Under the pieces are notes generated by a model. That model was not told where the DNA came from, did no database searches, and worked only from the letters and a program-made list of their open reading frames with translations. The position numbers and the translations under genes are program-made. A DNA stretch of 27,176 nucleotides from NCBI GenBank assembly GCA_020356005.1, contig CP070629.1, positions 829,558-856,733 on the forward strand, written 5' to 3'. The DNA comes from Thermoplasmata archaeon (GTDB lineage Archaea; Thermoplasmatota; Penumbrarchaeia; JAEHCK01; GCA-020356005). Position 1 is the first letter of the stretch. The number at the start of each line of letters is the position of its first letter. Positions 6,001 to 20,260 of the stretch are shown in pieces.

Positions 6001-9000
6001 GATTGTGAGCTCGCCAGGTACTCCGGTTTCGATTCCTCAGGAATGTGGACACCGTGGTGCGAAGGCGATACTGTCAAGTTGAAAATGGTAACCGGTTCCG
6101 GCCGGCACTACTGGGGTTTCAAGGTAAATAAGATCGAATATCTGACCGACGGGGTCTCCCCCATTCATCCCTACGGTAAAGCCGAGCTGATAAATAAATT
6201 GACCAATCTTGAGAACACCATGGACACCATCTGCATATTCAATGAAATTACTTCAACCGCCGAATTTGAAAAATTGGTAGAAAGCCGTCTAGAATCGCCC
6301 ATGGTCATCAATTTGCACGGCGATGCGGTGCCCGTCCCTGATTCTTATTTAACCGGAGGTGCCAGCGCCACCATACCGCCGCTGGGCTATTCGCCGGGCG
6401 GTGTAAAAGGCGAATATTACGACAACGAGGGTTTCACGAACCTGAAGGAGACCCGTGTGGACAACGAAATAAATTTCTACTGGAAATACGGCAGGCCTGT
6501 GGGTTCCGTCCATGGTGATACATTCAGCGTTAGATGGACCGGAATGCTGAGAGTCGATTTCTCAGAGGAATATACCTTCCATGTCCAGACAGATGACGGC
6601 ACCAGGTTCTGGATCGACAAGAACATGGATGGTGATTTCGACGATGCAGAAGAACTTGTAATCGATACCTGGAAGCTCCAGGCACCCACCTGGCATCAAG
6701 GTAAAATAAAGCTTACTCCCGGGTTCTATAATATCAAGTATGAATATTACGAGCATTACGGCTATGCGGTGGCAAAGCTGTTCTGGAGCTCGAAAAACAT
6801 TAAAAAGTCGGCGGTACCCGGCGAGAACCTCTATTCAAATCTGGCAACGCCGGCGGGCTACACCTCCGGCGGTCTTGAGGGTGAATATTATGATAATGCC
6901 GATTTAAAATATTTGAAGACAAAAAAAGTTGATTCAACAATCAATTTTAACTGGGGTACGGAAAGCCCGGATGCGGCCGTGGACCCTGATACATTATCGA
7001 TCAGATGGACGGGCATGGTAAAAATCGACGAGACGGGTGAATATGAGTTCTCGGTTAACACCGATGACGGGTCGAGGCTGTGGGTGAACAATCAGCAGAT
7101 CATCAATTCATGGAAGGACCAGTCCGCGCCCACTGAGTATTCCGGTAAGATCTCCTTTACGAAACCCGGTTTTTACGATATCACCTACGAATACTTCAAG
7201 AATACCGGGAGCGCTACGGCACAGCTATACTGGAAAACTCCATCCATGACGCAGGATGGTGAGCAGAAGGTAATCATTCCCTCCGATCATTTATTCAACC
7301 GCGGCGGGATATTCAGATACGCACAGGAATGGCTGAACGAGCTGGGCGATTGGGTTGCGCAGAACGGTGTGGTATATGCCAACACCAAGGATTACCCGTT
7401 CCAGTACGCCATAATCGATAACCCGCCGCCCGACAGCGGCAATCTCTGGTTCATCGGCGAAGAGGGTTTTTCGGAGTTTTTATCACCGCGCTCAGAAAGT
7501 GTAACGCTTGCACGGTACGAAGAAGGGCTCGGGATGGGCAACCTGACCCCCAACGGAAGAGCGCTCCGTGATTACCTGCCTGCGCGTACATTACCGAATT
7601 ATGTGACCGATGTACCCTACCCGCTGCCCTCAGACTATGACTGTATTCCCATCTTCCGCGACAAGGACAACAGGGATATTACCCACGGTATTATTCCCTT
7701 CGGAAGGGGTGCGTACATCCACTGCGGCGGATTCTCGGTGGATGCCTTAACCGCCATGTGTTTCATGTATTCATCTAAAAGAGACGATATGCGGTTTATC
7801 GGCGAGGTATATTACAAAGGCGAAACCGTCTGGACACAGGTACAGGTTCGCAACGATTATCCAATGGAAATGACATATGATTTTGAGCTGGTAACCCATT
7901 TCCCGGAGGAGGGGCTGCGGTCCAGGCGGATGACGGATTCGGAGATCGTTACTCTGCAGCCCGGCGAGGAGAAGACCATATACCTATCGTGGACGCCCAT
8001 CCAGCCGGATAAGATCGGTAAGTACAGCCTGGTAGTCCAGGTAATCGATCTGGAACGGCACACACTGGTAGAGATCTGGGGTAACGATATAGAGAACGAG
8101 TCTATTTCCATTAGCGTGGAGGTGGGAGCTTATATTTCGCAGCTTAAGACCAGCGATTACCTGGGATATTTCGATACTGTTGAAGTTGAGGTTACCATAA
8201 CGAACGAGATGTATATAGATAATCTATTTATCGTCAGCGGTATTTTCCAGAACAAAATCAACAAACATGTTTACTGGACGGAGGAGGAGGAACTTCCGGA
8301 GTATGAAGCCGAGGGTGGTATGGATACTACAGTGACTGTTGTATGGCATCCCTCCCAGCATAACTATCCGAACCAGACTTTTGAGCTCGGGATCTACCAG
8401 GGTACCATATTCTTAGAGGATGTTGCCAGTGCTTACTGCATACCCGATAAAAGTTATAAGACAGGTGAGCCGAAATATTTCAGGGTGAAGAAGATCATAG
8501 ATCAGAGCTCCACGGAATTCCGGATCGTGGGCCAGCTGGAAATCAATTTCCCGAAGGATATCGGGACATGGTCCATCAGCTACCACGGCGAGCTGGGCCC
8601 GTACTTCCCAATCAACCCGCAGGTCCGTGATGTGGTGCGCGTGTTCGACCCCGAGTACGATATCTGGATACGCCGCGACAGCCGGCTGGAGCTGGAGCCA
8701 GAAAGAGAGCCAGGCGGCATGATAGGCTACTGGAAGTTTGATGAATCTGTATGGACCGTGGACGCCGGCCAGGTTACCGATTCGTCGGGCAACGGGCACC
8801 ACGGCACCGCTTATAACGGTGCAAATACGGTACAGTATTCAAGATTCGGTCGATCAGCTGCCTTCAACGGGCAGAATTATGTTGTGATACCGGCCCATGA
8901 TGACATCAATGTTGGTAATAACAATGCGAACTTCAGTGTGGAATTCTGGTTCTTTTTAAAGCAGGGTCCCATCCGTTATTGGCGCAACATAATGCACAAG

Positions 9001-11541
9001 GGTAGTACGAATTCCGAGCGAACATTTGCAATGTGGATGAAGCCATGGGATAATAAAATCCATGCCCGGATAAGCACCACACACAACGTGAACGAGGGAT
9101 TTGACAGCAAGGCATACCTCCAGTTGAACTCATGGACACATGTCGCTTATGTTAAAGACGGAAACACGCTCAGTCTATACCTGAACGGTAAACTTGATAC
9201 CAAGTACACATTGGTTGGTTCTGTTGTTAACAATTCGGGACCGCTGTACATAGGGAAGGACATGTGGTACAATGGCGTTAACAGCCACATCGATGAATTG
9301 TGTCTTTACAACCGCCCCATTTATGAAGATGAGATAAAGCTGCACTATAAGAGCGGTGTAATGGAAGCTTCGGACAGGAACGCTTTCAAGCTGGGTTATT
9401 ATTCGGATTCCGGAAATGACCTGTATGCTGTGGTGAATTTTGAAAGCCAGGATGACGGCAACAGCTACCAGAAGGTTTTAAAGCTGCCCGCTGACGGCAA
9501 CTATCTAGATGTGGAACATCTGTTTGCATATTACTGGCCCGAGGGTACAACTTTAAAGATCTCGCAGGAGCCTAATTTGCAGTTCTCCGGTACGGAATAC
9601 TTCAGTTATAACGGCCCGAGACCCACCACTTTGCCTCTGGAGACCACCGTTAACGGTGTGGATTGCGCGGTACTTTACAACAGAGGTGCGGGAGTCACTT
9701 ACGATGTGGTTTTAAACGATGCGAACTTCTACAAGATCTTCATTACGGCCCAAAACTGTCCCAAGTCCGAAGCCGGCGATATAAAGCTCAGGCTGCATCT
9801 GCACTACTGGACCGGCAACCCGGCACACAAAGATTCGTTCGGTAACGTTGGATGGAAGACCAACGACGAGTCACCGAAGGATTTTGTATGGAGCGAGCGA
9901 AATGAGGAATTTGATACCAAGGAGTTCAGGCTGATACTGTCACCTGCAGGTCATTATCACATAACAATAGAGAACCTGCACGATTATTATACAAAAGATT
10001 ATGACAAGAACGCGTATATATCCGAAGTAGCGATCCGCCCGACATATGCTCTTGATATGGAAAAGCAGAAAGTAGATGAGAGCCAGATGCTGGCAAGCGG
10101 AGAGGCGGGCACACGGAGCATAAGCACCAGCAGCCGTGTGGGCGAAGATGGACCCATCGGCAACCGCAACTGTGACCTCGGTGTTCGACCCAAGAAGGTG
10201 CCGGATGAAACCATGGACTATACGTATAACGAGGTCCCCATCCCGATGTTCGGCGCCAACTACGATATGGGCAGCCCGGGCATAGAAGCTGGCGGCAGCC
10301 TACCTGTAAAATTCGGTGACCATGTAGGATTGGAAATAGAATTCGGTTTAGAGATAGATCCTACTACGGGACTGCTTCAAAAGATCTCTATCGGTATCAC
10401 ACTGGGTATCGAGGGTGAGATAGGCGGGATAGTTAAAATCGCCGCCAAGATACAGGTCCAGATAGAATTCGATGATATACTTAACACCAGCAAACCCTTT
10501 ATTGAGAAATTCAAATGGTCTGTTACTGTTGAGATCGAGGTGGGTTTCGAGATAGGTAAATTGATCTGGAAAGCGCCCATAAGCTTCGAGGTGCCGAAAC
10601 CTGGAGGAAAAGAGGGTGAAGATGAATCTCTATTGGCATTGAAACTCTGCCTGTGGATAGAGCTCGGTTTCAAGATAAGTCTGCACAGCGGAGCGAACGC
10701 CGGTGACGTCCAGATAACAGCGGGAATCTACGGCGGCATTAAATTCGAGGTCAAGTTCGAGGTCAAGATCACTCCTGATATCTTGAAGGGATTAACGCAA
10801 AAGAGTACAGATATGAGAAAGGAGAACACCAAGGCGTTAACCGATCACGCCGACCAGTCCCAGAAGGCAGAGGAATTAGAGGAAAAGCGCGAGAACAAAA
10901 TCAAGGAAATGCAAAAAGACAATAAAGATAAACCGCGCGAAGAGATCGAGAAGTTAGTAGACGAATCGCCAATGGGAAAACAGTATGCCGAGGAGCAGAA
11001 AAAGAAAGAGGATTCGTTCGCGAACCTGATGAAAAGCAGTAAAAAGTTGAGCGAATGTAATAAGTTTAAGGATATATTCGAAAAGGTTTTCGGGAAGGGC
11101 TTCAAGGATTTCCCGACCTTCCTTGAGATAGAGTTCACCATAAATTTTGTTATCGGCCTCCGCCTGGGTGTAAGCACACAGGTAGCGCCGTTCTCGCCTA
11201 CCGGTCCATACTGGAAACTGCTGTTCTACACCGAGTTCTTCTTCGCGGCTGAAATATCCTTTAAAATAATTATCAATATCTGGATCATTAAACTGGAATT
11301 CCCCATAGGCTTCAAGTTCTGGATCGACAAGATCTTCTGGATGAACAAGGTCAATATAATCGGTGCATCAGAATGGGATGACGACGGCGTTATGGGTCAG
11401 TTCATGTTCAAATGCCGCGAAAATATAGATGATGAGACCAAGGACATGATGCTGCCCGCACCCATAGGAGACGATTCAGGCTTCGAAGTGGTGTTCCTGT
11501 GGTTTAAGTTCAAGTTCTCGTTTTGTTTGGTATCTACTTGA
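1..11541 (+). CDS. Giant membrane-anchored multi-lectin surface protein (5'-incomplete, at least 3,846 codons): BNR/Asp-box-like repeats, TM hairpin with poly-E/K loop, 3x LamG, FBA, 2x PA14, CARDB-like Ig folds, C-terminal amphipathic beta-strand module
   Basis: The frame is uninterrupted from nt 1 to the TGA at 11539-11541. Codons 1-9 (acc ccg ata) contain no stop, so the TTG at nt 10 in the ORF track is probably not the real start and the gene likely continues upstream. Recognisable motifs occur along the whole length: SSDGLNW Asp-box, GEYYDN...SVRWTG PA14 signatures, LamG 'IDDVRIS/IDELCLYNR' endings, and an FBA signature. All antisense ORFs inside it look like shadow ORFs. Confidence 0.9.
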   Translation, partial: TPILNDDEDNDYEPSLLYTADEFLLVWVSNEFDQYTFMGSTDENLITYSVSSDGLNWNDPESVHPRYCQESTPYLSVDSIGRILLTWSSDRMDFEEAEDERDHDKDIWYSTYAAGEWAVPSALTSDPANDESPSMFQKGNGDYWTVWSRDDRIFYSTTDELPPPVNAFGSAINVPIDRWREEFDYTYEDEISNTFWIYNYGERDLTGKITASQGFTLNKFEFAIAPGENISFTVTLNAKDEGRYLGVVEILSNDEIAPRISIPLYVKITSSEFEESEKDIGEGVGPEEEEAEEEGEEDFQRVLILLTALVIILLLIFIVMRREEKKAAEEKKKEDEEEEEEKEEEEGEEKEGEEGEEEGEGEEEEEGGEEEEGESKGEEGSEVEEDAASDEDVKTEEKEPEDKGAAKAKPKRKRAVKPLMVFGAFFSIMILLLSNCSGAANMMVLAQDSDIPQSEIPKISENDPGEFWTWVPYYDQSGEESNLEMHSEYYDDEGTYPPDWVEYGSSLSLRQLVEMPFPVEKLRFWMRHDEGSGPVGVEITENVSSKVAAGTEYFWADYSSSSYDWCEVNVSTSKITNVLGGGSYYIHLTPPMDILTEGEMYGVNRIGTVKLNDTPIPPAHIVYKTLYDAEVDFAQRGTDKYQHIFWTSKIDDTVLIDEFFMDYDYYDDLNPQYMSDSLWYTDNDFNMKMELYIKAEMFNSANVFQPSYPGYENAEIAGKINIVNPFSDQENFTVRVGLLGPDGTEYNVLNEEHKIKYGTNLQLDYSYFTEAKLPAGDYNVLAGIYLTDIYEGEYLVMADKWGDTDYELEKTKFSIINTTPIMDVTLIDKLKSDVVDGKIPVYYLKCSDAPGHKPPRSIQSEMDNIQERFDSLESVLGVDFEHKDITSTREFLELVESDVKDAIVVNYHSDLLPIPSSFARGEYVDLNTIVRYYFDENNGTTVYDRSKYINDADFVGNPAWTQEKYQGASALYFDGSNDMLEIDDDITLKTPRFTIQFWLYLNKEYTSGVQSILSYAGSKGGYEINLNQTSSNAPNQIEFSISHNSSWHHISGMSLEVNKWYRITAILNDTEASLYVGWEETKKKRRSEVTIQVDELQGKIELGGISFSDTSLTIGGSKLDTTRNIEMYIDDFILTNDVRLPQEYTEGHPEDGVNWVKRVGKWIADSGIVFVNTRYSPFTAVGNTDKNWPYNRISLGAEGFGNILETRSVDATIYKDTWLENIKTDKTPEAANIQTILSAWGIPFPDSFESAQTYMTLDSELEPFCIPLYKTADNEITHAMIFYGKGAIMYNGLNNPDAALIAGTAGWYTAKNIQPLYFIDCSDAPKSSSSKDYVTELKSSFDKLQADTGIQFYYITISSTDQFYQLINSNVRDIIVVNTHGEYLPMPANYISGACVDDKTNALLGFEEGSDISAFDISGNYNDGLIVGATWSTNAHYGDYALDFDGNDFVVLTRTPKLSPKTFTIECSVYLKQDYDNKSAAIISNEFHRDSEPGEEYTHTYGYSLYINSNYTTLNRLVFSLGTKLPEVEPLYFDSLEKERWYRLAATYDGRYMKLYVNYEEVASKVAYGLHPETLNNLQIGKCPRYDYPINAIIDDVRISEGALSPDQMLIDVVSHKLCLEDLNRWISESSIIWTNIEGYDFLYLGLKDQDWPDDRVNIGYDGLSEFSEIGLPPLELNTRSNTCTLTDVGDKIDTDLASMILKSSFQSTANIPASYDMFTIPIYSNDNAVSHGVIPIGKGKFIHTGTYDADLVASTAAWFFTKGNVQMIFLVDIPATVGGTDPLVVESQHPYPTRFGTSENLIDNPGAESGSMSGWKVLLHGGNGWRVQGGSYDGEKHFRTSFNWCKRYQEIDLLAEGYTTDELNAKPTIYAEEWFHGSWPNYGDYYYLKVELRDANHKAISTYNSGVQRATNSWQKLSHTFSEYGAGVRYIYWEDGGDDAEYWWGYYGVMIDGAFLTIDTAELDDTWVFYKPDVSRIRVHFEKYEIGSTGDYIKVLNKNDCELARYSGFDSSGMWTPWCEGDTVKLKMVTGSGRHYWGFKVNKIEYLTDGVSPIHPYGKAELINKLTNLENTMDTICIFNEITSTAEFEKLVESRLESPMVINLHGDAVPVPDSYLTGGASATIPPLGYSPGGVKGEYYDNEGFTNLKETRVDNEINFYWKYGRPVGSVHGDTFSVRWTGMLRVDFSEEYTFHVQTDDGTRFWIDKNMDGDFDDAEELVIDTWKLQAPTWHQGKIKLTPGFYNIKYEYYEHYGYAVAKLFWSSKNIKKSAVPGENLYSNLATPAGYTSGGLEGEYYDNADLKYLKTKKVDSTINFNWGTESPDAAVDPDTLSIRWTGMVKIDETGEYEFSVNTDDGSRLWVNNQQIINSWKDQSAPTEYSGKISFTKPGFYDITYEYFKNTGSATAQLYWKTPSMTQDGEQKVIIPSDHLFNRGGIFRYAQEWLNELGDWVAQNGVVYANTKDYPFQYAIIDNPPPDSGNLWFIGEEGFSEFLSPRSESVTLARYEEGLGMGNLTPNGRALRDYLPARTLPNYVTDVPYPLPSDYDCIPIFRDKDNRDITHGIIPFGRGAYIHCGGFSVDALTAMCFMYSSKRDDMRFIGEVYYKGETVWTQVQVRNDYPMEMTYDFELVTHFPEEGLRSRRMTDSEIVTLQPGEEKTIYLSWTPIQPDKIGKYSLVVQVIDLERHTLVEIWGNDIENESISISVEVGAYISQLKTSDYLGYFDTVEVEVTITNEMYIDNLFIVSGIFQNKINKHVYWTEEEELPEYEAEGGMDTTVTVVWHPSQHNYPNQTFELGIYQGTIFLEDVASAYCIPDKSYKTGEPKYFRVKKIIDQSSTEFRIVGQLEINFPKDIGTWSISYHGELGPYFPINPQVRDVVRVFDPEYDIWIRRDSRLELEPEREPGGMIGYWKFDESVWTVDAGQVTDSSGNGHHGTAYNGANTVQYSRFGRSAAFNGQNYVVIPAHDDINVGNNNANFSVEFWFFLKQGPIRYWRNIMHKGSTNSERTFAMWMKPWDNKIHARISTTHNVNEGFDSKAYLQLNSWTHVAYVKDGNTLSLYLNGKLDTKYTLVGSVVNNSGPLYIGKDMWYNGVNSHIDELCLYNRPIYEDEIKLHYKSGVMEASDRNAFKLGYYSDSGNDLYAVVNFESQDDGNSYQKVLKLPADGNYLDVEHLFAYYWPEGTTLKISQEPNLQFSGTEYFSYNGPRPTTLPLETTVNGVDCAVLYNRGAGVTYDVVLNDANFYKIFITAQNCPKSEAGDIKLRLHLHYWTGNPAHKDSFGNVGWKTNDESPKDFVWSERNEEFDTKEFRLILSPAGHYHITIENLHDYYTKDYDKNAYISEVAIRPTYALDMEKQKVDESQMLASGEAGTRSISTSSRVGEDGPIGNRNCDLGVRPKKVPDETMDYTYNEVPIPMFGANYDMGSPGIEAGGSLPVKFGDHVGLEIEFGLEIDPTTGLLQKISIGITLGIEGEIGGIVKIAAKIQVQIEFDDILNTSKPFIEKFKWSVTVEIEVGFEIGKLIWKAPISFEVPKPGGKEGEDESLLALKLCLWIELGFKISLHSGANAGDVQITAGIYGGIKFEVKFEVKITPDILKGLTQKSTDMRKENTKALTDHADQSQKAEELEEKRENKIKEMQKDNKDKPREEIEKLVDESPMGKQYAEEQKKKEDSFANLMKSSKKLSECNKFKDIFEKVFGKGFKDFPTFLEIEFTINFVIGLRLGVSTQVAPFSPTGPYWKLLFYTEFFFAAEISFKIIINIWIIKLEFPIGFKFWIDKIFWMNKVNIIGASEWDDDGVMGQFMFKCRENIDDETKDMMLPAPIGDDSGFEVVFLWFKFKFSFCLVST
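904..1302 (+). other. Internal transmembrane hairpin: TM1 (VLILLTALVIILLLIFIVM), ~95-aa poly-Glu/Lys loop, TM2 (MVFGAFFSIMILLLS) that resembles a signal peptide
   Basis: Two hydrophobic ~19-aa and ~16-aa stretches sit at nt 904-960 and 1258-1302. Both have basic residues on the loop side (RREEKK after TM1, KAKPKRKRAVKP before TM2). The loop is an almost pure purine (GAR) tract on the + strand. Confidence 0.75.
2791..3432 (+). other. LamG/concanavalin-A-like lectin domain 1 (Laminin_G_3-like)
   Basis: YYFDENNGTTVYDRS...ALYFDGSNDMLEI...FTIQFWLYL...WYRITAI...LYVG...MYIDDFILTN. This is the pattern typical of LamG_3 domains in prokaryotic surface proteins. Confidence 0.75.
4204..4827 (+). other. 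LamG/concanavalin-A-like lectin domain 2
   Basis: LLGFEEGSDISAFDISGNYNDGLIVGATW...ALDFDGNDFVVL...FTIECSVYL...WYRLAATYDGRYMKLYVN...IIDDVRISEGALSPDQM. Confidence 0.8.
5401..5877 (+). other. FBA domain (F-box-associated / Fbs1-FBXO2 type sugar-binding domain)
   Basis: NLIDNPGAESGSMSGWKVLLHGGNGWRVQ...FRTSFNWCKRYQEIDLLAEGY...YYLKVELRD...WQKLSHTFSEYGAGVRYIYWEDGGDDAEYWWGYYGVMIDGA. This aligns block for block with my recollection of the FBXO2 sugar-binding domain: NLLRNPCGEEDLEGW...HGGDGWRVEE...FASSFEWCRKAQVIDLQAEGY...YELTVKLL...WMEISHTFTDYGPGVRFVRFEHGGQDSVYWKGWFGARVT. Confidence 0.8.
6397..6795 (+). other. PA14 domain 1
   Basis: GGVKGEYYDNEGFTNLKETRVDNEINFYW...DTFSVRWTGMLRVDFSEEYTFHVQTDDGTRFWID...GFYNIKYEYYEHYGYAVAKLFWSS. 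This is the canonical PA14 signature. Confidence 0.9.
6868..7245 (+). other. PA14 domain 2
   Basis: GGLEGEYYDNADLKYLKTKKVDSTINFNWG...DTLSIRWTGMVKIDETGEYEFSVNTDDGSRLWVNNQQII...GFYDITYEYFKNTGSATAQLYWKTPS. Confidence 0.9.
8725..9360 (+). other. LamG/concanavalin-A-like lectin domain 3
   Basis: GYWKFDES...VTDSSGNGHHGTAYNGA...AAFNGQNYVVIP...FSVEFWFFL...WTHVAYVKDGNTLSLYLNGKL...LYIGKD...IDELCLYNRPIYEDEIKLHY. Confidence 0.85.
10234..11538 (+). other. C-terminal amphipathic beta-strand module (two blocks) split by a ~105-aa K/E-rich coiled-coil-like insert (nt ~10801-11118)
   Basis: There are runs of strict hydrophobic/polar alternation: GLEIEFGLEID, ISIGITLGIEGEIGG, IQVQIEFD, WSVTVEIEVGFEIG, LCLWIELGFKISLH, IKFEVKFEVKIT, LEIEFTINFVIGLRLGV, EISFKIIINIWIIKLEF, FEVVFLWFKFKFSF. 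I do not recognise a family signature. Confidence 0.6.
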
Positions 11542-11744: not shown

Positions 11745-11778
11745 TATTATGGTAAATATATATAATATTGTGGTAAAT
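11745..11778 (+). promoter_or_regulatory. Candidate operator/promoter of the VapBC-like pair: two 13-nt direct repeats (TATTATGGTAAAT / TATTGTGGTAAAT) 21 nt apart within an A/T-rich TATA-like tract
   Basis: The repeats are at 11745-11757 and 11766-11778 and match at 12 of 13 positions. The second ends at the proposed TTG start. AbrB/SpoVT-type antitoxins typically autoregulate through repeated operators. Confidence 0.35.
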
Positions 11779-12029
11779 TGGAATTTATTAAAATCGACCA
11801 AACGGGTAAAATCTACCTGCCTAAAGTCATACGAAACAAAATAGATACCCGCAGTAAATATTTGGTAATTACCCTGCCGGACGGCGATGTGATTCTTCAT
11901 AAAATTAAAAGGTCAAAGAATCCTATACGTGATTTTCAGAAAGCATGGTCCACAGGAAAGGATATTGCAGAGATAAGAAAGGATATTCTGGATGAAGCCG
12001 TTAAACTTGCTGGAGAACGCGGTGATTGA
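11778..12029 (+). CDS. AbrB/SpoVT-fold antitoxin (VapB-like)
   Basis: The N-terminus (M)EFIKIDQTGKIYLPKVIRNKID...LVITLPDGDVILHKI is the swapped-hairpin AbrB/MazE/SpoVT motif. The gene is 83 aa, lies directly upstream of a PIN gene and overlaps it. The start is a TTG and is uncertain. Confidence 0.75.
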   Translation: MEFIKIDQTGKIYLPKVIRNKIDTRSKYLVITLPDGDVILHKIKRSKNPIRDFQKAWSTGKDIAEIRKDILDEAVKLAGERGD

Positions 12030-12408
12030 GTTGTATGCCGATACCGATTTTTTTCTGGCATTAATAAAAAAAGATGATTGGTTGAAGAAACGGGCGGAAA
12101 AACTTTATAAAAAACATCAAAATGAATTGTGGACATCTACATTGACTATTAAAGAATTAATGCTTTTAGCATATCGTGATAATAAGGATGTTACAGATAT
12201 TATCGAAAAAGCTTCCGCTTTAATGCCGGTTAAGGAGGTAGATATCGGTGTGGAAGGGCATATTGCCGCCAGCTTTTTAATTAAAAAATATAAAATGACG
12301 CCCTTCGATGCATTACATGCAGTTATTTGTGATAATGATTCAATTATCAGTTCAGATAAAAAATATGATTTGATAGGGCTCAATAGAATTACGTTAGAAA
12401 AAGAATAG
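12022..12408 (+). CDS. PIN-domain ribonuclease toxin (VapC-like)
   Basis: It carries the N-terminal acidic motif YADTDFFLAL and the later FDALHAV and ISSDKKYD motifs typical of PIN domains. I prefer the GTG at 12022: GGAGAA lies 4-5 nt upstream, it overlaps the antitoxin stop by 8 nt, and the first conserved Asp falls at residue 7-9. The ORF-track ATG at 11992 is the alternative. Confidence 0.75.
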   Translation: MIELYADTDFFLALIKKDDWLKKRAEKLYKKHQNELWTSTLTIKELMLLAYRDNKDVTDIIEKASALMPVKEVDIGVEGHIAASFLIKKYKMTPFDALHAVICDNDSIISSDKKYDLIGLNRITLEKE

Positions 12409-12532
12409 ATAAAACTGAGATTGGGAATCCGAACCAATTTTTCTCCAAATTTATAAAAACAACAAAGAATTTAATAGTCTATAATGCAATAATGTGGGTA
12501 ATCTTCCGATTATATTCATGGAGCTCTTTGTG

Positions 12533-14665
12533 ATGAAAATCAAGATCAACCGGATATTGTTATTGATTATTGCATTCATATTGATCTTCGCCGCGGTTGG
12601 CAGCGCTGTTATTTACAGATTCTATTTGCAGCCTGAGGAGGAGGAGGCGGAGACGCTCAAAATCGGTGTGCTGCTGCCCCTGAGCGGCCCCGAAGCTGTT
12701 AATTCATATGAGGTGCTGGATTGGGCTGCGGGCAATATCAATTCGCAGGGCGGAATAAAAGAATATCAAATCGAGCTGGTGTACAAAGACACCTATAACC
12801 ATGACCTGGCATTGCTGGCAGATGAGTTCATACAGGACGAATCCATTAAAATCGTGATCGGGCCGGGCACAAGTTCAGGTGTGTTCGATATTGCGCCTAT
12901 GTTCATTGCCAATAAAAAAATTCTTATCAGTGCATTTTCCACTGCAGCCGATGTATTCAACGCCTTCGGCGGTAAGAACTACATATGGCGCACCTGCCAA
13001 TCCGATGTTGCACAGATACGAACCATTCTGCATATACTCGACTCCAGAAATGTACAGAAAATATCGTTGATGTACGAGAACTCGGTTTACGGGAAGTCCT
13101 TCTATGATTGGACCGGTTTTTTTTCGCTGGAACTGGGAATAGAATTATTGAATCTGGTGGAATTCGAGTACGGGCAGAGCGATTTTTCCGAGGATGTGAA
13201 AACTGCTCTGGAGGGTGATCCCGACTATATCGTTTGTGTCGCATTCTCATCGGATGTAGTGGAGATCAAGAAGGAGCTGGATTTGACCGGCAGCTCAGCC
13301 AAGCTCTTCCTCACGGACGCAGGCGAGACGCCGTATTTGATCAGCGACCTAGGACAAGCAGCCGAGGGGCTGGAAGGTACCACCCCCTCTGCAGATCCCG
13401 CTGCGGGTTTCGAGGCAGTTTATCAAACCGAGCTTGGAAACCCGCCCAACAATATAGCAGCCACAACCTACGATGCGTTCCTGCTCGCACTATATACCCA
13501 CGCCAGACAACTTCATACGGGCGGCTCGGAGGGATTAGATGAATCCATAAAAAAAGTTGTTAGTGGTAACGATACGAAAGTGGGCTGGAGGAAAGAGGAT
13601 GTGGGAGCTGCCGTAGAAATGATTTTGAAAGGAGAGCTCCCGGACATCTCAGGCGTTTCGGGGCCATTGGAATTCGATTCCGAATTCGGCTGCGATCCCC
13701 TTGAAACCTTCTTCAATCACTGGCAGGTATCGGGCGGCGAGTTTCAAAGCCAAGATTCGATCAGTTCGGCTGCATCCTTACATGCAGGAGCAGTTAAATC
13801 AGGTGCTTCCGCATGCAGAACTTCGGGCAGCGCTGAAATTGGTAAAATAGAGGACACAACCGGCACAACGAACGGTCAACTCGCTGCCAGGAAGGATTCC
13901 TGGGCCGTAATTGTCTCTACCAGCACAGACTGGGACAATTACCGTCACCAAGCAGACGCTCTTGCTGTTTACAATATGTTGAAAACCAACGGTATGAGCG
14001 ATGATAAGATTATATTGTTAACGGTGGACGACATACCTGACCATGAGCGTAACAAAAAGCAAGGAGACATACACCACGAGATTAGTGGTACAAATCTCCG
14101 GTTGGATGCAGAGATCGATTATTCTGGTAATGATGTTACCTCCAAGATCTTCCGAAATGTATTAACAGGTAAAAAAACCGCCAGGACACCCACCGTGTTG
14201 GAATCCGATGAGAACAGCAATGTGTTTGTGTATATAGTAGACCACGGCGGCCAGGGCACCATACCCTTTGATAACGGCGGAACACTAAAGGCAGATACAT
14301 TGAAGAATTCTATAGTCGGTATGGACAATGACAATATGTTCCGGCAGATGTTTGTTATTATCGAGACATGTTTTTCTGAGAGCATGACCGCCGATATCGA
14401 GACCCCCGAAGTTGTTTTTTTGACCTCCGCAGCAGAGGACGAGCCCTCATTTGCTGCGAATTACGATTCTGAGATCGGGGCATGGCTGGCGGACGACTGC
14501 ACCTACCAGGTGGTTTCCACACTATCGGAGAATAAAGATATTTCCATAATGGAACTGTATGATGATACATATCCCAAGATCACCGGGTCGCACGTAAGAT
14601 TAAAAAACTATAACAGCTTCAGTAATGTTGAGAGCACGCCGGTAAGCGATTTCATCATGCCGTAA
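12533..14665 (+). CDS. Membrane-anchored fusion protein: type-I periplasmic binding protein (LivK/ANF-receptor-like) domain + C13 legumain-family cysteine peptidase domain
   Basis: The N-terminus MKIKINRILLLIIAFILIFAAVGSAVIY is a signal anchor. LKIGVLLPLSGPEAV...GGI...IELVYKDT...KIVIGPGTSS is the PBP1/Peripla_BP_6 pattern. The C-terminal half matches legumain block by block, including the His and Cys of the catalytic dyad: WAVIVSTSTDWDNYRHQADALAVY...DDI...DYSGNDVT..F.NVLTG...VFVYIVDHGG...MFVIIETCFSESM...SHV. The start at 12533 has GGAG 8 nt upstream. The ORF track begins at the GTG at 12494. Confidence 0.85.
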   Translation: MKIKINRILLLIIAFILIFAAVGSAVIYRFYLQPEEEEAETLKIGVLLPLSGPEAVNSYEVLDWAAGNINSQGGIKEYQIELVYKDTYNHDLALLADEFIQDESIKIVIGPGTSSGVFDIAPMFIANKKILISAFSTAADVFNAFGGKNYIWRTCQSDVAQIRTILHILDSRNVQKISLMYENSVYGKSFYDWTGFFSLELGIELLNLVEFEYGQSDFSEDVKTALEGDPDYIVCVAFSSDVVEIKKELDLTGSSAKLFLTDAGETPYLISDLGQAAEGLEGTTPSADPAAGFEAVYQTELGNPPNNIAATTYDAFLLALYTHARQLHTGGSEGLDESIKKVVSGNDTKVGWRKEDVGAAVEMILKGELPDISGVSGPLEFDSEFGCDPLETFFNHWQVSGGEFQSQDSISSAASLHAGAVKSGASACRTSGSAEIGKIEDTTGTTNGQLAARKDSWAVIVSTSTDWDNYRHQADALAVYNMLKTNGMSDDKIILLTVDDIPDHERNKKQGDIHHEISGTNLRLDAEIDYSGNDVTSKIFRNVLTGKKTARTPTVLESDENSNVFVYIVDHGGQGTIPFDNGGTLKADTLKNSIVGMDNDNMFRQMFVIIETCFSESMTADIETPEVVFLTSAAEDEPSFAANYDSEIGAWLADDCTYQVVSTLSENKDISIMELYDDTYPKITGSHVRLKNYNSFSNVESTPVSDFIMP

Positions 14666-14844: not shown

Positions 14845-16284
14845 TCATCGCTCCCTGTATCCCATCTGCTCGCGAACTGTGGGCGGTTTGTATTTCGATT
14901 TCTCAAGATCGAATTTTGCCGTGTATGCCATTTGATTTAACGACTCCGCCAGGAACTCGAACTCGTCACCGGTATTGACCTCAATTTTGTGTTCAAGCTG
15001 TTTCTTCTGCATTGCGTCTGCACCATCTTTAAGTAGAAAAATCGGTCTGGTGATTGACCTGCCCACCAGTATGGACAGAACAGAAATTACAGCAAGAGCA
15101 ATTATGACAAAAAGAATGGATATGTTGAACGCCTCACCCAGCTGTTCGTCGATATAGTCGCTGGCGTTCCCTGTGGCATTTGTTATTTTACCTTCGATCT
15201 CCACAGCGGGTGCGATTATTTCGGCAATGGGCATAACAAATGCGACGCTCCAGCCGGTGCTCTCTATCGGCGCGTAAGCGAAATATTTCTCACCCTCCTC
15301 CAGTTCACACCGACTGATCCCAGAATTGCCCGTTGTCATATCCTCGCCTATGGCTTTTAAATCCGGGTTCGTACTCTCCAGCAGATTCTCAAGCTCAAAG
15401 GATTCGTCCCACATTTTATCCTCAGCCTGCAGGCCCGGCCGGGCGATTATATTACCGTTATTGTCCACAAGTATCCCGTAACCGGTTTCACCAACCTGCG
15501 GTTTAATAATATCGGAATTGATGGTTTTTATGGTAATATCCGCCGCCACCACCCAGAAATAATCTGTGCTGGTGGAGTACACAGGTGCGGAGCATGTTAT
15601 CATCAGCTCGTTCGTACCCACATCCAGGTACGGGCTCGTCCAGGATATCCCGCCCGACTCTACCGCATTTGTATACCAATCCCGCACCCTGGGATCGTAC
15701 GTTGGATCTATTCCGGTATCCCACGGATAAATCCTGGCAAAACCGGAACCGGTCCCGATATAAATCCATTCTACATAGGGATCGTTGGAATAAGTGGGTA
15801 TGAAAATATTATCGAGAACACTTGAAAGGTCCAGTTCAGCTCTAACATTATCTGCAGACACACCGGGGGCCAGCACATATACGGAATCTTCGAAAATATC
15901 TTCAGGCTGCTCGTTTTGTGAATATGAATATTTATATTGAAACGATGATGAATTATCGATAAGAGTGGCGGCGAATTCAGACACTATGCTTACTTCCGAT
16001 TCTATCTTTTCGAACAGCATATTTCCGAAAGCTGCTTGACCTTTTGCCAATCTTACCAGGTTATCCTCGGCTTGTGACTCTAGAGCAGTTGTGCTGTCGT
16101 CCACGGCGCTGTCGCCAAGTTCTGTGCACCGGTCAATAGTATAATCACCGCTCTCCTCTAAATTATCTAGAGAGAAATATCCGAAGAAAATTAATGAAAT
16201 CAGAGAAAATACCAAGAAAACTATCAGGATTTTTGTTCGTATCTTCATTTTGATTCTTGATTTCTGTGTCATAAAAACCACCAT
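14845..16284 (-). CDS. Membrane sensor with extracytoplasmic Cache-like domain and HAMP domain, no output domain (paralogue of the N-terminal two-thirds of the adjacent PP2C phosphatase)
   Basis: It has TM1 (ILIVFLVFSLISLIFFGYF), a ~330-aa periplasmic region, TM2 (ISILFVIIALAVISVLSILV) and a HAMP-like stretch (RPIFLLKDGADAMQKKQLEHKIEVNTGDEFEFLAESLNQMA). By eye it is collinear and roughly half identical with residues ~30-470 of the 17112-19286 product. It ends about 30 aa after HAMP. Confidence 0.8.
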   Translation of the reverse strand: MVVFMTQKSRIKMKIRTKILIVFLVFSLISLIFFGYFSLDNLEESGDYTIDRCTELGDSAVDDSTTALESQAEDNLVRLAKGQAAFGNMLFEKIESEVSIVSEFAATLIDNSSSFQYKYSYSQNEQPEDIFEDSVYVLAPGVSADNVRAELDLSSVLDNIFIPTYSNDPYVEWIYIGTGSGFARIYPWDTGIDPTYDPRVRDWYTNAVESGGISWTSPYLDVGTNELMITCSAPVYSTSTDYFWVVAADITIKTINSDIIKPQVGETGYGILVDNNGNIIARPGLQAEDKMWDESFELENLLESTNPDLKAIGEDMTTGNSGISRCELEEGEKYFAYAPIESTGWSVAFVMPIAEIIAPAVEIEGKITNATGNASDYIDEQLGEAFNISILFVIIALAVISVLSILVGRSITRPIFLLKDGADAMQKKQLEHKIEVNTGDEFEFLAESLNQMAYTAKFDLEKSKYKPPTVREQMGYRER

Positions 16285-16290
16285 ACTTAA

Positions 16291-16626
16291 CTACTTAAGC
16301 ATTTTTTCTGCATCTTTAACATTACTGCAGCATTTAAAAAGAGAGGTAAAGCCTGTTATATCAAAAACCTCCTTCACCTGAGGTTGCAGTCCCACAAGCA
16401 CAAGCTCACCATCATTCTTCTTCGTCTCCTTCAAACCTGCCAGTAGAACTCTTAAACCGGCACTGCTGATGAAATCTACATCTTTCATATCGATAATAAG
16501 CTTAAATTTCTTATCGGAAATGATCGAATTCAACCTGGATTCGAGATCCAGAGCCGTATTGGCATCGATTTTACCCTTTACAATTACAAGGCCCAGGTCT
16601 CGTTTCGTTTTAAAATCCAATTCCAT
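16291..16626 (-). CDS. STAS-domain anti-sigma-factor antagonist-like protein (RsbV/SpoIIAA family)
   Basis: LVIVKGKIDANTALDLE...IIDMKDVDFISSAGLRVLL...LVLVGLQPQVKEVFDITGF is the classic STAS pattern and includes the phosphorylatable Ser in DFISSAG. I chose the ATG at 16626 because AGGAGGA lies 5-6 nt upstream. The track start at 16656 would overlap the upstream gene. Confidence 0.85.
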   Translation of the reverse strand: MELDFKTKRDLGLVIVKGKIDANTALDLESRLNSIISDKKFKLIIDMKDVDFISSAGLRVLLAGLKETKKNDGELVLVGLQPQVKEVFDITGFTSLFKCCSNVKDAEKMLK

Positions 16627-16645
16627 ACTAGTTCCTCCTGATCGG

Positions 16646-17071
16646 CTATTTACCAATATATTTGATCATTGTTAATTCATTCCCTGCATCTGCATCAAAG
16701 GTATAATCCAGTTTATCGATATAAGCTTTCATTAAGAAAATTCCGAGCCCGCCTATTTTTCGCTTCTCCAAAGGCGCTTTCGTATCCGGTTCGGGTACAC
16801 TTTTTGGATCGAAGGACTTGCCCTTATCCCTGATAATGATCTTGAATTCATTGCCGGAACCGGAGCAGTCAATAATAATCGGCCCAGCTGTTCCGGGATA
16901 TGCATGTTTCATTATATTGGTACATGCCTCGTCCACTGCCACCTGCACCTCAAATATCTCCTTTTCGGACCCGAACCCGAGGCTCTTCATGGCATCCGCT
17001 ATAAAGTCCCTGACCTCAGGGAGATTTTCAAGTTTACTCGCAACTTCAAGATGTAATTTCTGATCTTCCAT
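16646..17071 (-). CDS. RsbW/SpoIIAB-like serine protein kinase (HATPase_c, anti-sigma-factor family)
   Basis: N-box EACTNIMKHAY, G1-like IIRDKGKSFDP and G2 IGGLGIFLM. The 141-aa size and the position directly upstream of the STAS gene fit this family. Confidence 0.85.
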   Translation of the reverse strand: MEDQKLHLEVASKLENLPEVRDFIADAMKSLGFGSEKEIFEVQVAVDEACTNIMKHAYPGTAGPIIIDCSGSGNEFKIIIRDKGKSFDPKSVPEPDTKAPLEKRKIGGLGIFLMKAYIDKLDYTFDADAGNELTMIKYIGK

Positions 17072-17111
17072 GTGTATTATCCATCCCGGATCTTTGATTA
17101 AGATATATAAT

Positions 17112-19286
17112 TTATTTAACCTTTAATATTATCATAGTGATATCGTCAGCCTGGGGTTCGCCCCTGGTAAACTCTTTAACATCAGCTTTTATTTTGTCAA
17201 CGATCTTTTGAGGGGTTAGTTTGCGATTGCTCGCAAGCAGATCTTTCAACCTTTTTTCACCGTACTGCGCCCCCTTATCGTTCAGTGCTTCCGTAACTCC
17301 ATCGGTAAAAAGTACAACGATATCCCCTGATGAAAGCTCCACCTCAACCTCTTCAAGCTCTATGCTTTCAACTACCCCCAGTGCGATTCCCTTTGCTTTT
17401 AACAGCACAATCTCACTGGTATCTTTGCGCAGAACCAGAGGAGGGTTATGGCCGGCGTTAACATAAGTTAAAATTCTTTTCTTTGAATCGAAAATAGCAT
17501 AGAACAGCGTTACGAACATGGAAGCCTTCGAGTCCTCGCAGATCAGCTTGTTCGCGCTGGTAATGGCCCTTGCAGCCGTTGGATCTTGCACGGTGTTCGC
17601 ACGCACAAGCGTCCGTGACAGCGCCATGAACAGAGCCGCGGGCATGCCCTTACCGGATACATCGGCTATTGCAAGGCCCCATTTATCCTCTGAGATATGT
17701 ATGAAATCATAGAAATCGCCGCCGATCTCCTTGGCGGATTGATTGAATGCCGCAAGCTCGATACCTTCTATATCAGGCACATGCTCGGGTAATATGCTCT
17801 GCTGGATCTTCTGGGCGATATCCATTTCCTTCATCAACCGCTCCTTCTCTGCAGTTGTGTGCTGCAGTTGATCCATATGCCGGTTCAAATCCAGCGCCAT
17901 TTTATTGAAGGAATCCGCGAGATCCTCTAGTTCATCGCCGGTCTTTACATCAACTCTATGCTCAAGATGACCCTGCCCGATGGTGTTGGCGCCCTTTGTC
18001 AGGGTTTTAATGGGCTTGGTGATTTTTCCAGAAAGTACATAAGCCAGGGCGATAACTGCAATAATTATAACAATAAAAATTATAATGAACATATTCTGCA
18101 GATTCAGGATCTTATCCTCAATGCTTTCCTCTGTATCCTTCGTGGCCCTGTCTATTTGACCCTTGGTTTCGGTTGCCGGTGCGATTATCTCGGAAACTGG
18201 CATAACGAAACCAACGCTCCATCCCGTGCTGTTGATAGGTGCATAAGCAATATATTTCTCCCCATCCTCAAAGCTGCACCTGGCAACGCCGCTGCCGCCA
18301 AGTGTCATTTTTTCGGCTATCGCTTTCAGCTCTGTATTATTGCTCTCCAATAAATTCTCGGTTTCAAACGATTCGTCCCACCTGTTATCGCCCGCAGCCA
18401 GACCCGGGCGGGCGATAACAGAGCCTGACTGATCAATTAACAAAGCGTAACCCAGTTCGCCAACCTTTGTATTGATAATATCGGAATTGATGGTCTCTAT
18501 GGTAACATCGAGTCCGATGACCCAGAACATGTCATCCTGAGGTGAATTAACCCGCTGCGAGCAGGTCACCATCAGGCCCGTGCCGGCAACATCGATATAC
18601 GGCTCGGACCAGGATATTCCCTCGGAGCTCTCTGCATTCTTGTACCATTCGCGCTCCCTGGGGTCGTATGTTTCGGGGATGCCGGTGCACCATGGGTAGA
18701 TCCGTATCATACCCGATTTGGTGCCGATGTAAACCCAGGTCAGGTGCGGGTCGCTTGAATAGACCGGTATGAAGATCTCGTCCATGTTGCTTGATAGATT
18801 CAGTTCTGATTGAATAGAATCGTTGTCAACATCCGAAGCAAGAACATAGACTGAGGTCGAATAAATATCATCGGGCGTTTCGTTTTGAGAATAAGAGTAC
18901 CTGTAGGAGGTCATTGATGAATTATACATGAGGTTATATGCGAAATCGCTCATGATATTGGCTTCGGCTTCTACTTTTTCAAATAAGGTGTTGCTAACCT
19001 CCGCTTGGGCCGCCGCCATATCCATGAGATGCTTTTCGGCCTGCTGCTCCAGTGCAGTTGTGCTGTCGTCAACCGCCTGCTCGCCCAGGTCCTTGTTGCG
19101 GTCGGATGAATAATCGCCCATCTCGTTTATGTTCCAGAGTGCAATGAATCCAAAAATGGGAAGAGCTATAAGTGATAGAATCAAAAATGAAACCAGTATT
19201 TTGGATCTTATCGTAAAGTGCTTTGATTTTCCAGCAGCCATATCTTTACTTCCAGTTAGCTTTGAATTTGATGAATGGAAATCCAT
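17112..19286 (-). CDS. Cache-HAMP-PP2C (SpoIIE-type) serine phosphatase, RsbU-like partner-switching input
   Basis: The N-terminal TM/Cache-like/TM/HAMP part is followed by QKIQQSILP...GGDFYDF...GLAIADVSGKGMPAALFM...FTDGVTEA...DDITMIILKV, a textbook SpoIIE/PP2C domain. The ATG at 19284-19286 overlaps the upstream CDF stop (TGATG). The track uses the TTG at 19289. Confidence 0.88.
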   Translation of the reverse strand: MDFHSSNSKLTGSKDMAAGKSKHFTIRSKILVSFLILSLIALPIFGFIALWNINEMGDYSSDRNKDLGEQAVDDSTTALEQQAEKHLMDMAAAQAEVSNTLFEKVEAEANIMSDFAYNLMYNSSMTSYRYSYSQNETPDDIYSTSVYVLASDVDNDSIQSELNLSSNMDEIFIPVYSSDPHLTWVYIGTKSGMIRIYPWCTGIPETYDPREREWYKNAESSEGISWSEPYIDVAGTGLMVTCSQRVNSPQDDMFWVIGLDVTIETINSDIINTKVGELGYALLIDQSGSVIARPGLAAGDNRWDESFETENLLESNNTELKAIAEKMTLGGSGVARCSFEDGEKYIAYAPINSTGWSVGFVMPVSEIIAPATETKGQIDRATKDTEESIEDKILNLQNMFIIIFIVIIIAVIALAYVLSGKITKPIKTLTKGANTIGQGHLEHRVDVKTGDELEDLADSFNKMALDLNRHMDQLQHTTAEKERLMKEMDIAQKIQQSILPEHVPDIEGIELAAFNQSAKEIGGDFYDFIHISEDKWGLAIADVSGKGMPAALFMALSRTLVRANTVQDPTAARAITSANKLICEDSKASMFVTLFYAIFDSKKRILTYVNAGHNPPLVLRKDTSEIVLLKAKGIALGVVESIELEEVEVELSSGDIVVLFTDGVTEALNDKGAQYGEKRLKDLLASNRKLTPQKIVDKIKADVKEFTRGEPQADDITMIILKVK

Positions 19287-20260
19287 CAATCTTTCTTACC
19301 CCGGCTCTTTTTATATTTCATGGGGATCAGAATGAACCGCATTTCGGGAAAGTGCTCCTGCAGGTGTTTTTCGATTTTGCCCTGGAGCTTACTTATTTCT
19401 TTTAACGACATGTCCTTCTTTAAATAAAGTTCTATCTCAATGAAGCGCTTTTTGCCGCTGCTGCGCGTGTAGATATTACCTATATTCTCGTAACTTTCGT
19501 ATTGTTGTGCCAGAACACCCATGATCTTCAGCTGGTCTTGTTCCGGCAGCGGAAAATCTATGAGGACCTTGAAGTTACCCACCGTCAATGTAATTCCGCA
19601 GTAAAGCATGTATAACGCGAGGATCAATGATATTATCGGGTCAAGTAAATAAGCAAGGGTCTCCTGCCCCGAAGATACGAGCACAAACCCGAAGCTTATA
19701 CCGATCAGGACCCCAATATCGAACAGTGTCGTTACTTTGAAATTGATATAGTACGAATGTACCATTGGCGATTCGCTTTTCTGCATCAGCTTTGATGATC
19801 TTCGGAACAGCCATATACTGCGCAGCAGTGAAGGTACCAGCGGTATCTGCGCCAGCGAAAAAGATATGAATTCGGGCGGCGACATAAACCTCCAGGCTGC
19901 GGTGTATATAATGAACAGAGATGTGGGTATAGCCAGCGCACCGTACAGGAAACTCGAGAAATTCTCTAACTTGCCCGTCCCGTAAGGGAACTTCAAAATA
20001 TTGGATTTCTGGATGGTGCGTATGGATTGGAACGCAAATACCTGCACGATCAGAGACAGCCCGTAATCGAAGGCGATTGTATAAATGGTAATGGCATTAG
20101 AGAAATACCCGAAAATGAAATACAATATTATAAAAGGAATAATAGAAAGGAAGGCGATATCAACCAATCTTTTTAGGTCCTCCAGCTCCTGCTCCTCATC
20201 TGTCTTGGCTTCAGATGTACCCATTTCACCTTCTTTGCCTTTAGTAGTTATAAATCTCAT
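19286..20260 (-). CDS. Cation diffusion facilitator (CDF) family transporter, divergent metal-site residues
   Basis: It has six predicted TM segments, the FPYGTGKLENFSSFLYG motif after TM2/3 (compare FPFGHGRAE in CDFs), and a C-terminal alpha/beta dimerisation-type domain (IYTRSSGKKRFIEIELYLKKDMSLKEISKLQGKIEKHL). The positions that usually carry H/DxxxD in TM2 and TM5 read DYGLS and TTLFD. The start is uncertain between 20260 and 20224. Confidence 0.7.
   Translation of the reverse strand: MRFITTKGKEGEMGTSEAKTDEEQELEDLKRLVDIAFLSIIPFIILYFIFGYFSNAITIYTIAFDYGLSLIVQVFAFQSIRTIQKSNILKFPYGTGKLENFSSFLYGALAIPTSLFIIYTAAWRFMSPPEFISFSLAQIPLVPSLLRSIWLFRRSSKLMQKSESPMVHSYYINFKVTTLFDIGVLIGISFGFVLVSSGQETLAYLLDPIISLILALYMLYCGITLTVGNFKVLIDFPLPEQDQLKIMGVLAQQYESYENIGNIYTRSSGKKRFIEIELYLKKDMSLKEISKLQGKIEKHLQEHFPEMRFILIPMKYKKSRGKKD

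Follow-up and report, generated by a model that had tools for sequence, protein, structure and literature searches.

A single gene in a 27,176-nt stretch of a Thermoplasmata archaeon genome (contig CP070629.1, positions 829,558 to 856,733; hereafter the window) encodes a Venus-flytrap domain of the LivK type fused to a complete peptidase domain of family C13. This is the family of legumain and of GPI8, the catalytic subunit of glycosylphosphatidylinositol (GPI) transamidase. Both halves belong to known families, and no description of their combination was found. The product is interpreted here, with a probability of roughly 40%, as a peptidase that lacks a prodomain, is specific for Asn or Asp, acts on the outer side of the membrane and would be controlled by an amino-acid-like ligand bound in the flytrap. 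The positions of the gene, its parts and the genes that follow it are listed in Table 1.

The gene was read from the ATG at 12533, and its 710-residue product is identical to a protein deposited for a Thermoplasmata metagenome-assembled genome (P0001). Alternative in-frame starts are present at 12494 (GTG) and 12519 (ATG). The frame was read through from 12494 or 12533 to 14665 (+) without an internal stop or frameshift, including the region near ~13750-13900, and the claim of the first-pass annotation that both domains lie on one polypeptide was borne out. The search of domain architectures proposed in that annotation recovered both Pfam domains in 119 of the 120 best listed database clusters (90% identity level), which shows that the join did not arise from misassembly or a frameshift. 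Continuous fusions were likewise found in 80 independent genomes, and the length of the linker between the domains is conserved among 72 representatives. The one observation in favour of two adjacent genes joined by a sequencing or assembly error is a close relative (P0120; 62% identity in the flytrap) in which the flytrap and a C13 fragment occupy separate broken open reading frames (ORFs). This copy (L085, 1776-5054; L086, 342-2371) consists of a 432-aa flytrap ORF, small fragments and a 142-aa C13 fragment; it is an exception and, from its sequence, appears to be decaying to a pseudogene. The probability of an artefact was accordingly regarded as negligible.

The C-terminal half was matched by the Peptidase_C13 profile (PF01650) over aa 457-690 at an E-value of 2.4e-53 (181.7 bits against a cut-off of 22.8; profile positions 2-241 of 258). 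The top match among PDB sequences was the GPI-anchor transamidase subunit GPI8 (9ub7_C; 3.9e-35, aa 444-707), with legumain (4noj; 1.2e-31) close behind. For structural comparison, an AlphaFold2 model of the fusion was built on 42 homologues (mean predicted local distance difference test score (pLDDT), 92.8; predicted template-modelling score (pTM), 0.87) and searched with Foldseek against PDB structures. The C-terminal half superposed on mature human legumain (4awb) with a target-normalised template-modelling score (TMt) of 0.92, a root-mean-square deviation of 1.7 A and ~31% identity, and also on PIGK of the human GPI transamidase. By this superposition, and at this model confidence, the half has the caspase-like alpha/beta/alpha fold of the C13 family.

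The C13 motifs quoted in the first-pass annotation are all present (W457-AVIV, W467-DNYRHQAD, D570-H571-GG and I610-ETC613-FSESM), and the catalytic His (H571) and Cys (C613) had been correctly identified. H571-G572 and C613 are invariant in the 42 homologues (40-60% identity), and N469 is kept in 41 of them. Equivalences with legumain residues were taken from the sequence alignment to 4noj. R471, H472, E611, S639 and D654 are presumed to correspond to Arg44, His45, Glu187, Ser215/216 and Asp231 of the legumain S1 pocket (legumain numbering). In the same homologues R471 and H472 are invariant, position 611 is Glu or Asp, and S639 and D654 are kept in 39 and 41 sequences, respectively. The Cys-His-Asn triad and a legumain-type S1 pocket are intact in the alignment, which predicts specificity for Asn or Asp at P1. 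On sequence, modelled fold, triad and S1 pocket, the C-terminal half is a member of family C13 (clan CD).

Eukaryotic legumain is held in check by a C-terminal LSAM prodomain and by pH. No LSAM prodomain or activation peptide was found at the C-terminus of the fusion, and in 72 divergent representatives the chain ends 0-11 aa past the catalytic domain; because the tail is at most 11 aa in these sequences, no family member is considered to carry a prodomain. Prolegumain was covered in Foldseek at a TMt of only 0.57-0.62, against 0.9 for mature legumain. A C-terminal transmembrane (TM) helix, as found in GPI8, was likewise absent from the fusion and has no room in the short tails of the representatives. 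Self-inhibition of C13 enzymes is normally supplied by a C-terminal domain (PMC4357240).

The N-terminal half was matched over aa 41-320 by Peripla_BP_6 (PF13458; 1e-24, 88.3 bits against a cut-off of 31.7) and, on the same region, by ANF_receptor (9.7e-10). Both domains named in the first-pass annotation are therefore real, with Pfam matches far above the cut-offs. PDB sequence matches to the flytrap were 3td9 and 1z15, and the N-terminal half of the model superposed on Thermotoga LivK (3td9) with a TMt of 0.78. For mapping of the pocket, this half was aligned to E. coli LivJ and the columns were counted in 78 orthologues of 33-60% identity. The equivalent of LivJ Ser79, S114, is Ser in 73 and Thr in five; that of Thr102, T137, is Thr in 72 and Ser in six; that of Tyr150, Y186, is kept in 74; and that of Glu226, D262 (assigned with a one-residue alignment offset), is kept in 76. 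Together these four positions are 93-100% conserved. We take Ser79, Thr102, the Tyr150 region and Glu226 of LivJ to be the residues that grip the alpha-carboxylate and alpha-ammonium groups of the ligand. The equivalents of LivJ Tyr18 and Tyr202 are not conserved among the orthologues. The flytrap keeps a pocket of the amino-acid type and appears functional for binding an amino-acid-like ligand; which side chain it prefers is not readable from the sequence. Sequence, modelled fold and pocket together place the N-terminal half in the LivK/Peripla_BP_6 family.

The fusion is membrane-anchored, as had been proposed. Its sole hydrophobic segment is aa 8-31 (Kyte-Doolittle, 19-residue sliding window; maximum 3.04, elsewhere at most 1.34), and the model has a helix at aa 2-31; because there is no other such segment, the protein is anchored at its N-terminus only. 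The sequence accordingly places both domains outside the cytoplasm, on a tether in the cytoplasmic membrane. The archaeal homologues have a TM helix at this position, and those of Bacteroidota and Myxococcota have a lipoprotein signal with a lipobox Cys. Since the type of anchor switches between groups, membrane tethering itself is the conserved property.

The pTM of the two-domain chain implies a defined arrangement of the domains. No solved chain that contains both the flytrap and the C13 fold was found with Foldseek among PDB structures. The linker (aa 412-454) was modelled with a pLDDT of ~90 except at aa 441-450 (~64), and its length is 28-48 aa (median 37) in the 72 representatives. The linker was considered as an autocleavable pseudo-substrate, and this was not adopted, as column counts in the 78 orthologues gave no conserved Asn or Asp within it. 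A family-specific helix, YGxTFxDW(T/F)GFFxxE (aa 185-201), lies in the flytrap; its residues F190, W193, F196, F197 and E200 are conserved in 64-78 of 78 C13 fusions. In related proteins in which the flytrap is fused to a Bmp domain (below) the DW(T/F)GFF helix is decayed, while the pocket motifs are kept. Because it is conserved only where the partner domain is C13, we infer that this helix contacts the C13 domain and forms the interface between the two halves.

Relatives were collected from one genome per GTDB species. The scan gave 548, of which the best 80 loci were analysed; all 80 match the query over both domains, and two of them (L043 and L071) are cut by a contig end. The archaeal carriers are Thermoplasmata, ANME-1, Undinarchaeota and Methanomicrobiales, and include Methanoregula, Methanospirillum, Methanoculleus and Methanocalculus (among them M. 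taiwanensis P2F9704a, locus L061, the one carrier seen that is in culture); some Methanoregula genomes have two copies. The bacterial carriers are Bacteroidota (Draconibacterium, Tangfeifania), Myxococcota, Chloroflexota, Actinomycetota, Patescibacteria, Armatimonadota, Clostridia and Spirochaetales. The fusion family comprises at least 122 clusters at 50% identity. When the flytrap half alone was searched against 1.84 billion representative proteins, 122 representatives were obtained at E <= 1e-30. Domain content was assigned with hidden Markov models built from the family alignment; 109 of the best 150 flytrap representatives are plain flytrap-C13 proteins, from which ~8 others differ by insertions. 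The flytrap subfamily is accordingly almost confined to C13 fusions. The automatic labels in the databases are 'C13 family peptidase', 'ABC transporter substrate-binding protein' and 'GPI8/ABC-type branched-chain amino acid transport ... substrate-binding protein'.

Other architectures were rare. Four representatives (P0153, P0157, P0160 and P0145) carry a Bmp domain in place of C13; the genes of P0153 and P0160 stand alone in their loci, with neither a C13 nor an ATP-binding cassette (ABC) neighbour, and the P0160 locus has archaeal marker genes. Stand-alone flytraps of the same subfamily were also found (P0121, P0134, P0182, P0237 and P0264). In the nearest Thermoplasmata relative (L005), a stand-alone, TM-anchored flytrap of this subfamily (415 aa; 8166-9410, +) lies directly downstream of the fusion. 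Larger proteins were also found. In P0122 (884 aa) the flytrap-C13 portion is preceded by ~200 additional residues with a weak dockerin match, P0185 (1188 aa), a relative from the same subfamily, has three flytraps in tandem, and in P0254 (3020 aa) a partial flytrap unit is repeated six times or more.

For analysis of the neighbourhood, ORFs were called in all 85 loci and then clustered. The fusion has unrelated neighbours on each of three long homologue contigs, and the only widely recurrent neighbour in the 85 loci was a protein of the Bmp/PnrA family (~335 residues; PF02608 at 4.7e-43), itself membrane-tethered, with Borrelia BmpD (3e-28) and BmpA (8e-28) as its closest solved relatives. 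The Bmp gene is present in 25 of the 80 GTDB loci and directly adjacent in 24. It is mostly downstream of the fusion and at times upstream, and in 14 loci its start overlaps the stop of the fusion gene by 4 nt. In a neighbour-joining tree, loci with the pairing are spread among a Bacteroidota clade, a deltaproteobacterial clade, Methanocalculus and several sub-clades of Methanoregula; the link is therefore old or was repeatedly transferred. A 152-aa Bmp fragment lies ~0.8 kb upstream of the broken fusion copy in L085. No Bmp gene was found in the window with tblastn.

The first-pass annotation had also stated that no ABC transporter genes are adjacent. None was found in the window, and no ABC permease or ATPase family recurs in the 85 loci, where ABC-ATPase motifs were detected in four ORFs from three loci, in every case at a distance above 2.8 kb. 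A conserved operon with an ABC transporter was therefore rejected, and in the window and the 85 loci the flytrap lacks the linked permease and ATPase of an ABC-importer solute-binding protein (SBP). Sensor kinases lie near the fusion in 12 of the 85 loci, which is probably no more than expected in kinase-rich methanogen genomes by a rough estimate made with no computed background. In one Bacteroidota clade (L070, 3503-9095; L079, 3505-9104) a TPR-HisKA_3-type sensor kinase, a NarL/LuxR-type regulator, the flytrap-C13 gene and Bmp follow each other on one strand, with 16 nt between the response regulator and the fusion (kinase and regulator were identified by eye). An AraC-like membrane regulator and a tandem SBP-like lipoprotein, also identified by eye, lie near the fusion in Draconibacterium loci, together with arrays of a ~280-aa unannotated lipoprotein with no Pfam match. 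The fusion matched no family of the PADLOC defence-protein models at E <= 0.001, and membership in anti-phage defence was rejected.

Comparison with known systems was made for each half. With legumain (MEROPS C13; 4awb) the fusion shares the catalytic fold, the Cys-His-Asn triad and the zwitterionic S1-pocket residues. It differs in the short tail that replaces the LSAM prodomain and activation peptide, in its N-terminal membrane tether and flytrap, and in being prokaryotic and presumably active at neutral pH. GPI8/PIGK (9ub7_C, 7wld_K) is likewise a prodomain-less C13 enzyme held near the membrane by non-catalytic modules (PMC9098846). Its anchor is C-terminal, whereas that of the fusion is N-terminal, and no recurrent equivalents of PIGT, PIGS, GPAA1 or PIGU were found in the 80 loci, the genome elsewhere not being searched. 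In the fusion the holding module is a covalently attached flytrap. A deeper link through a periplasmic-binding-protein-like fold among the GPI transamidase subunits was considered and dropped, as a text search of the cryo-EM paper (PMC9098846) brought up no such fold for them. The fusion is thus neither a legumain proper, for it has no prodomain, nor a GPI8, for it has neither the C-terminal TM helix nor the partners.

The flytrap shares with LivJ/LivK (3td9, 1z15) the two-lobe type I fold and the equivalents of the residues for the alpha-carboxylate and alpha-ammonium groups; unlike them, it has no cognate ABC genes nearby, carries the extra DWxGFF helix and is fused to an enzyme. Extracytoplasmic flytraps with a catalytic output are known from the ANF/natriuretic-peptide receptor guanylate cyclases and from GlnH-GlnX-PknG, the control principle of which is ligand-induced closure (PMC9602780, PMC9769921); for the fusion such control is proposed. 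The fusion differs from these in its output, a cysteine peptidase of clan CD that lies with the flytrap on one side of the membrane; no precedent for this was found. In the lytic transglycosylase MltF, a module resembling a periplasmic binding protein activates the catalytic module allosterically. In DegS, the protease is activated by binding of a peptide to the PDZ domain. DegS would resemble the fusion in functional concept only, as a sensor domain that gates an extracytoplasmic protease; its folds (serine protease and PDZ) are unrelated.

Control by the flytrap is proposed because the protein has neither the prodomain nor the pH control of legumain. In this mechanism the peptidase would cut, and might transpeptidate, after Asn or Asp in cell-surface proteins or peptides, and the flytrap would supply the control that the prodomain gives in legumain. 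Binding of a small amino-acid-like ligand would close the flytrap, and closure would be relayed through the helix at aa 185-201 and the packed linker to switch the access or the activity of the peptidase. In many relatives the co-translated, membrane-tethered flytrap of the Bmp/PnrA type could be a second sensor or a partner; the copy in the window would act with no adjacent Bmp partner. SBPs are known to feed signalling receptors as well as transporters (PMC9602780, PMC9769921, PMC10384115). Several points weigh against control by the flytrap. A flytrap that is rigidly packed may not open and close. The pocket residues, as read from the alignment, are generic to the LivK family and prove neither that a ligand is bound nor which one. 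The same subfamily also occurs fused to Bmp or alone, and because it occurs without any peptidase the role of the flytrap is not peptidase-specific. No conserved signalling partner was found in the 85 clustered loci. Peptidase, ligase and transamidase chemistry are indistinguishable from the sequence.

Three other functions were weighed. If the flytrap does not sense, it could be a rigid spacer that sets the height of the C13 domain above the membrane, and perhaps also aids its folding or stability; by analogy with PIGT and PIGS for PIGK, only membrane-rooted substrates with the right stem length would then be cut. The placement of the flytrap between anchor and peptidase in a model with a high pTM, the tightly constrained length of the linker and the conservation of anchoring, by TM helix in archaea and by lipobox in bacteria, are in keeping with such a pedestal, and the non-catalytic subunits of GPI transamidase hold the PIGK dyad ~22 A above the membrane (PMC9098846). 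The conservation of S114, T137, Y186 and D262 at 33-60% identity would be unexpected for a pure spacer, however, and the pocket motifs are also kept in the flytrap-Bmp fusions. This explanation is judged rather unlikely. A role in nutrient scavenging is judged unlikely as well. Here the flytrap would hand amino acids to an ABC importer of the Liv type whose genes lie elsewhere, the peptidase on the tether would free food from extracellular protein, and Bmp would do the same for nucleosides. The pocket is of the amino-acid type, the Bmp partner resembles Borrelia BmpD and BmpA, which bind nucleosides, and tethering of SBPs to the membrane is typical in archaea and monoderms. The flytrap-Bmp fusions are also like known tandem substrate-binding domains, and the family is found in the reduced genomes of Patescibacteria and Undinarchaeota. 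Against this, ABC permeases and ATPases do not recur near the fusion and the few ABC-ATPase motifs are distant; an Asn/Asp-specific endopeptidase releases no free amino acids and is a poor bulk protease; and rigid packing on C13 would hinder docking to a permease.

Most improbable of the three is an analogue of GPI8 or sortase, in which the C13 domain would remove a C-terminal signal from surface proteins and pass the acyl-enzyme to an amine presented by the flytrap, such as that of an amino acid, of a lipid head group or of a component of the wall. The top PDB sequence match is indeed a GPI-anchor transamidase subunit, but the E-values of legumain are nearly equal (1e-31). The fusion shares with GPI8 the missing prodomain and a membrane-proximal catalytic domain, and plant C13 enzymes are natural transpeptidases (PMC5834244). 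The C-terminal TM helix is nevertheless absent, and partner subunits of GPI transamidase were not found in the window or the 85 loci (the rest of the genome was not searched). No conserved family of candidate substrates and no lipid-synthesis genes lie nearby in these loci or in the window. A pocket of the LivJ type would bury the very amine that must attack, and the flytrap-Bmp fusions have no transferase. Ligand control of the peptidase is retained as the preferred interpretation. A wider version of it is more tentative still, although not far-fetched. In this version, flytrap-C13 proteins, the co-translated Bmp flytraps and the flytrap-Bmp fusions would form an unrecognised extracytoplasmic module common to archaea and bacteria, in which transporter-independent flytraps sense amino-acid-like or nucleoside-like molecules and act as the switch for a peptidase or transpeptidase of the legumain type, by which surface proteins would be remodelled or released.

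Table 1. Positions in the window of the fusion gene, its domains and key residues, and the genes downstream of it
Feature	Position	Strand	Basis or remark
Flytrap-C13 fusion gene	12533..14665	+	710 codons + TAA (14663-14665)
N-terminal membrane helix/signal anchor, ~aa 7-31	12551..12625	+	Kyte-Doolittle profile and AlphaFold2 helix
Type I periplasmic-binding-protein (LivK/ANF-receptor) Venus-flytrap, aa 41-411	12653..13765	+	Pfam, PDB sequence matches, Foldseek
Flytrap pocket residues	S114 12872-12874; T137 12941-12943; Y186 13088-13090; D262 13316-13318	+	LivJ alignment
Family-specific helix, aa 185-201	13085..13135	+	Conservation in C13 fusions
Inter-domain linker, aa 412-454 (~43 residues)	13766..13894	+	Mostly ordered in model
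Complete C13 (legumain/GPI8-type) catalytic domain, aa 455-710	13895..14662	+	Pfam, PDB matches, Foldseek, conservation
Catalytic residues	N469 13937-13939; H571 14243-14245; C613 14369-14371	+	Legumain alignment, conservation
dCache-HAMP without output domain	14845-16284	-	Convergent, downstream of fusion
STAS	16291-16656	-	Partner-switching module
RsbW-like HATPase_c_2	16646-17071	-	Partner-switching module
dCache-HAMP-SpoIIE/PP2C	17112-19289	-	Partner-switching module
CDF cation-efflux gene	19286-20260		Follows partner-switching module

The fusion gene is effectively on its own in the window. Directly upstream (11778-12408, +), a gene for an AbrB-like antitoxin (83 aa) overlaps that of a PIN-domain toxin (138 aa). 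In L085 and L086, the loci of the decaying relative, the broken fusion is directly followed by a MazE-PIN pair. A partner-switching module of bacterial style in an archaeon (14845-19289, -) is oriented convergently to the fusion gene. A giant ORF of at least 3843 aa (10-11541, +) ends 950 nt upstream of the fusion. It has three Laminin_G_3 domains, two PA14 domains, an FBA domain (PF04300; 1.7e-30, aa 1797-1955), a poly-Glu/Lys stretch at ~aa 290-400 and hydrophobic segments, and is probably a huge surface adhesin or lectin; FBA is a sugar-binding domain known chiefly from eukaryotic F-box proteins.

A further ORF (21686-24055, -) encodes a very divergent, clan-CD-like surface protein of 789 aa with an N-terminal TM helix. 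Its match to Peptidase_C13 is weak (1.3e-5, aa 235-317), its FIIMFDHGN and YMGCHSGSF segments align to the His and Cys of the C13 domain of the fusion, and it has the Ig-like domains Big_7, Big_14 and Ca_tandemer. It had no PDB or PADLOC match and did not recur beside the fusion in other genomes, and kinship with the fusion was not supported (BLASTP E 0.75). An archaeal RNase P RNA (RF00373) was found at full length at 24484-24783 (+; 207 bits), and the window is therefore archaeal. No tRNA genes were found in it.

To our knowledge, the C13 enzymes characterised so far (legumain, the plant peptide asparaginyl ligases and GPI8) are all eukaryotic, and their control comes either from a prodomain together with pH or from a complex of several subunits. 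The present family is a compact prokaryotic C13 enzyme with neither kind of control and with a built-in flytrap of the amino-acid type. The first-pass annotation had not recognised the architecture as a characterised one; this stood in that a full-text literature search found no published description of it, and has to be qualified in that it is no oddity of one genome and belongs to a large, automatically annotated family of many phyla. The annotation had not noted the Bmp partner gene, the flytrap-Bmp fusions or the missing prodomain, and the gating by a ligand or capture of substrate that it suggested are putative. The combination is visible in databases and, as far as found, has never been studied. 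Even if the flytrap exerts no control, the family would offer prodomain-free C13 catalysts of possible use in peptide ligation, insight into how relatives of GPI8 and legumain are built in prokaryotes, and a testable case of transporter-independent SBPs. Should the flytrap indeed exert control, the fusion would become the first protease of clan CD at a cell surface to be gated by a ligand, and flytrap sensors would gain a new class of output. The wider module, if real, would represent a new class of ligand-gated surface proteolysis, with natural C13 enzymes that are free of a prodomain and work at neutral pH. Because the family is broad and repeatedly paired with Bmp, a general role in anaerobic sediment and wetland microbes is argued for. 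The fusion family offers a clear case in which ligand-gated proteolysis by clan CD, through the mechanism inferred here, could be put to the test.

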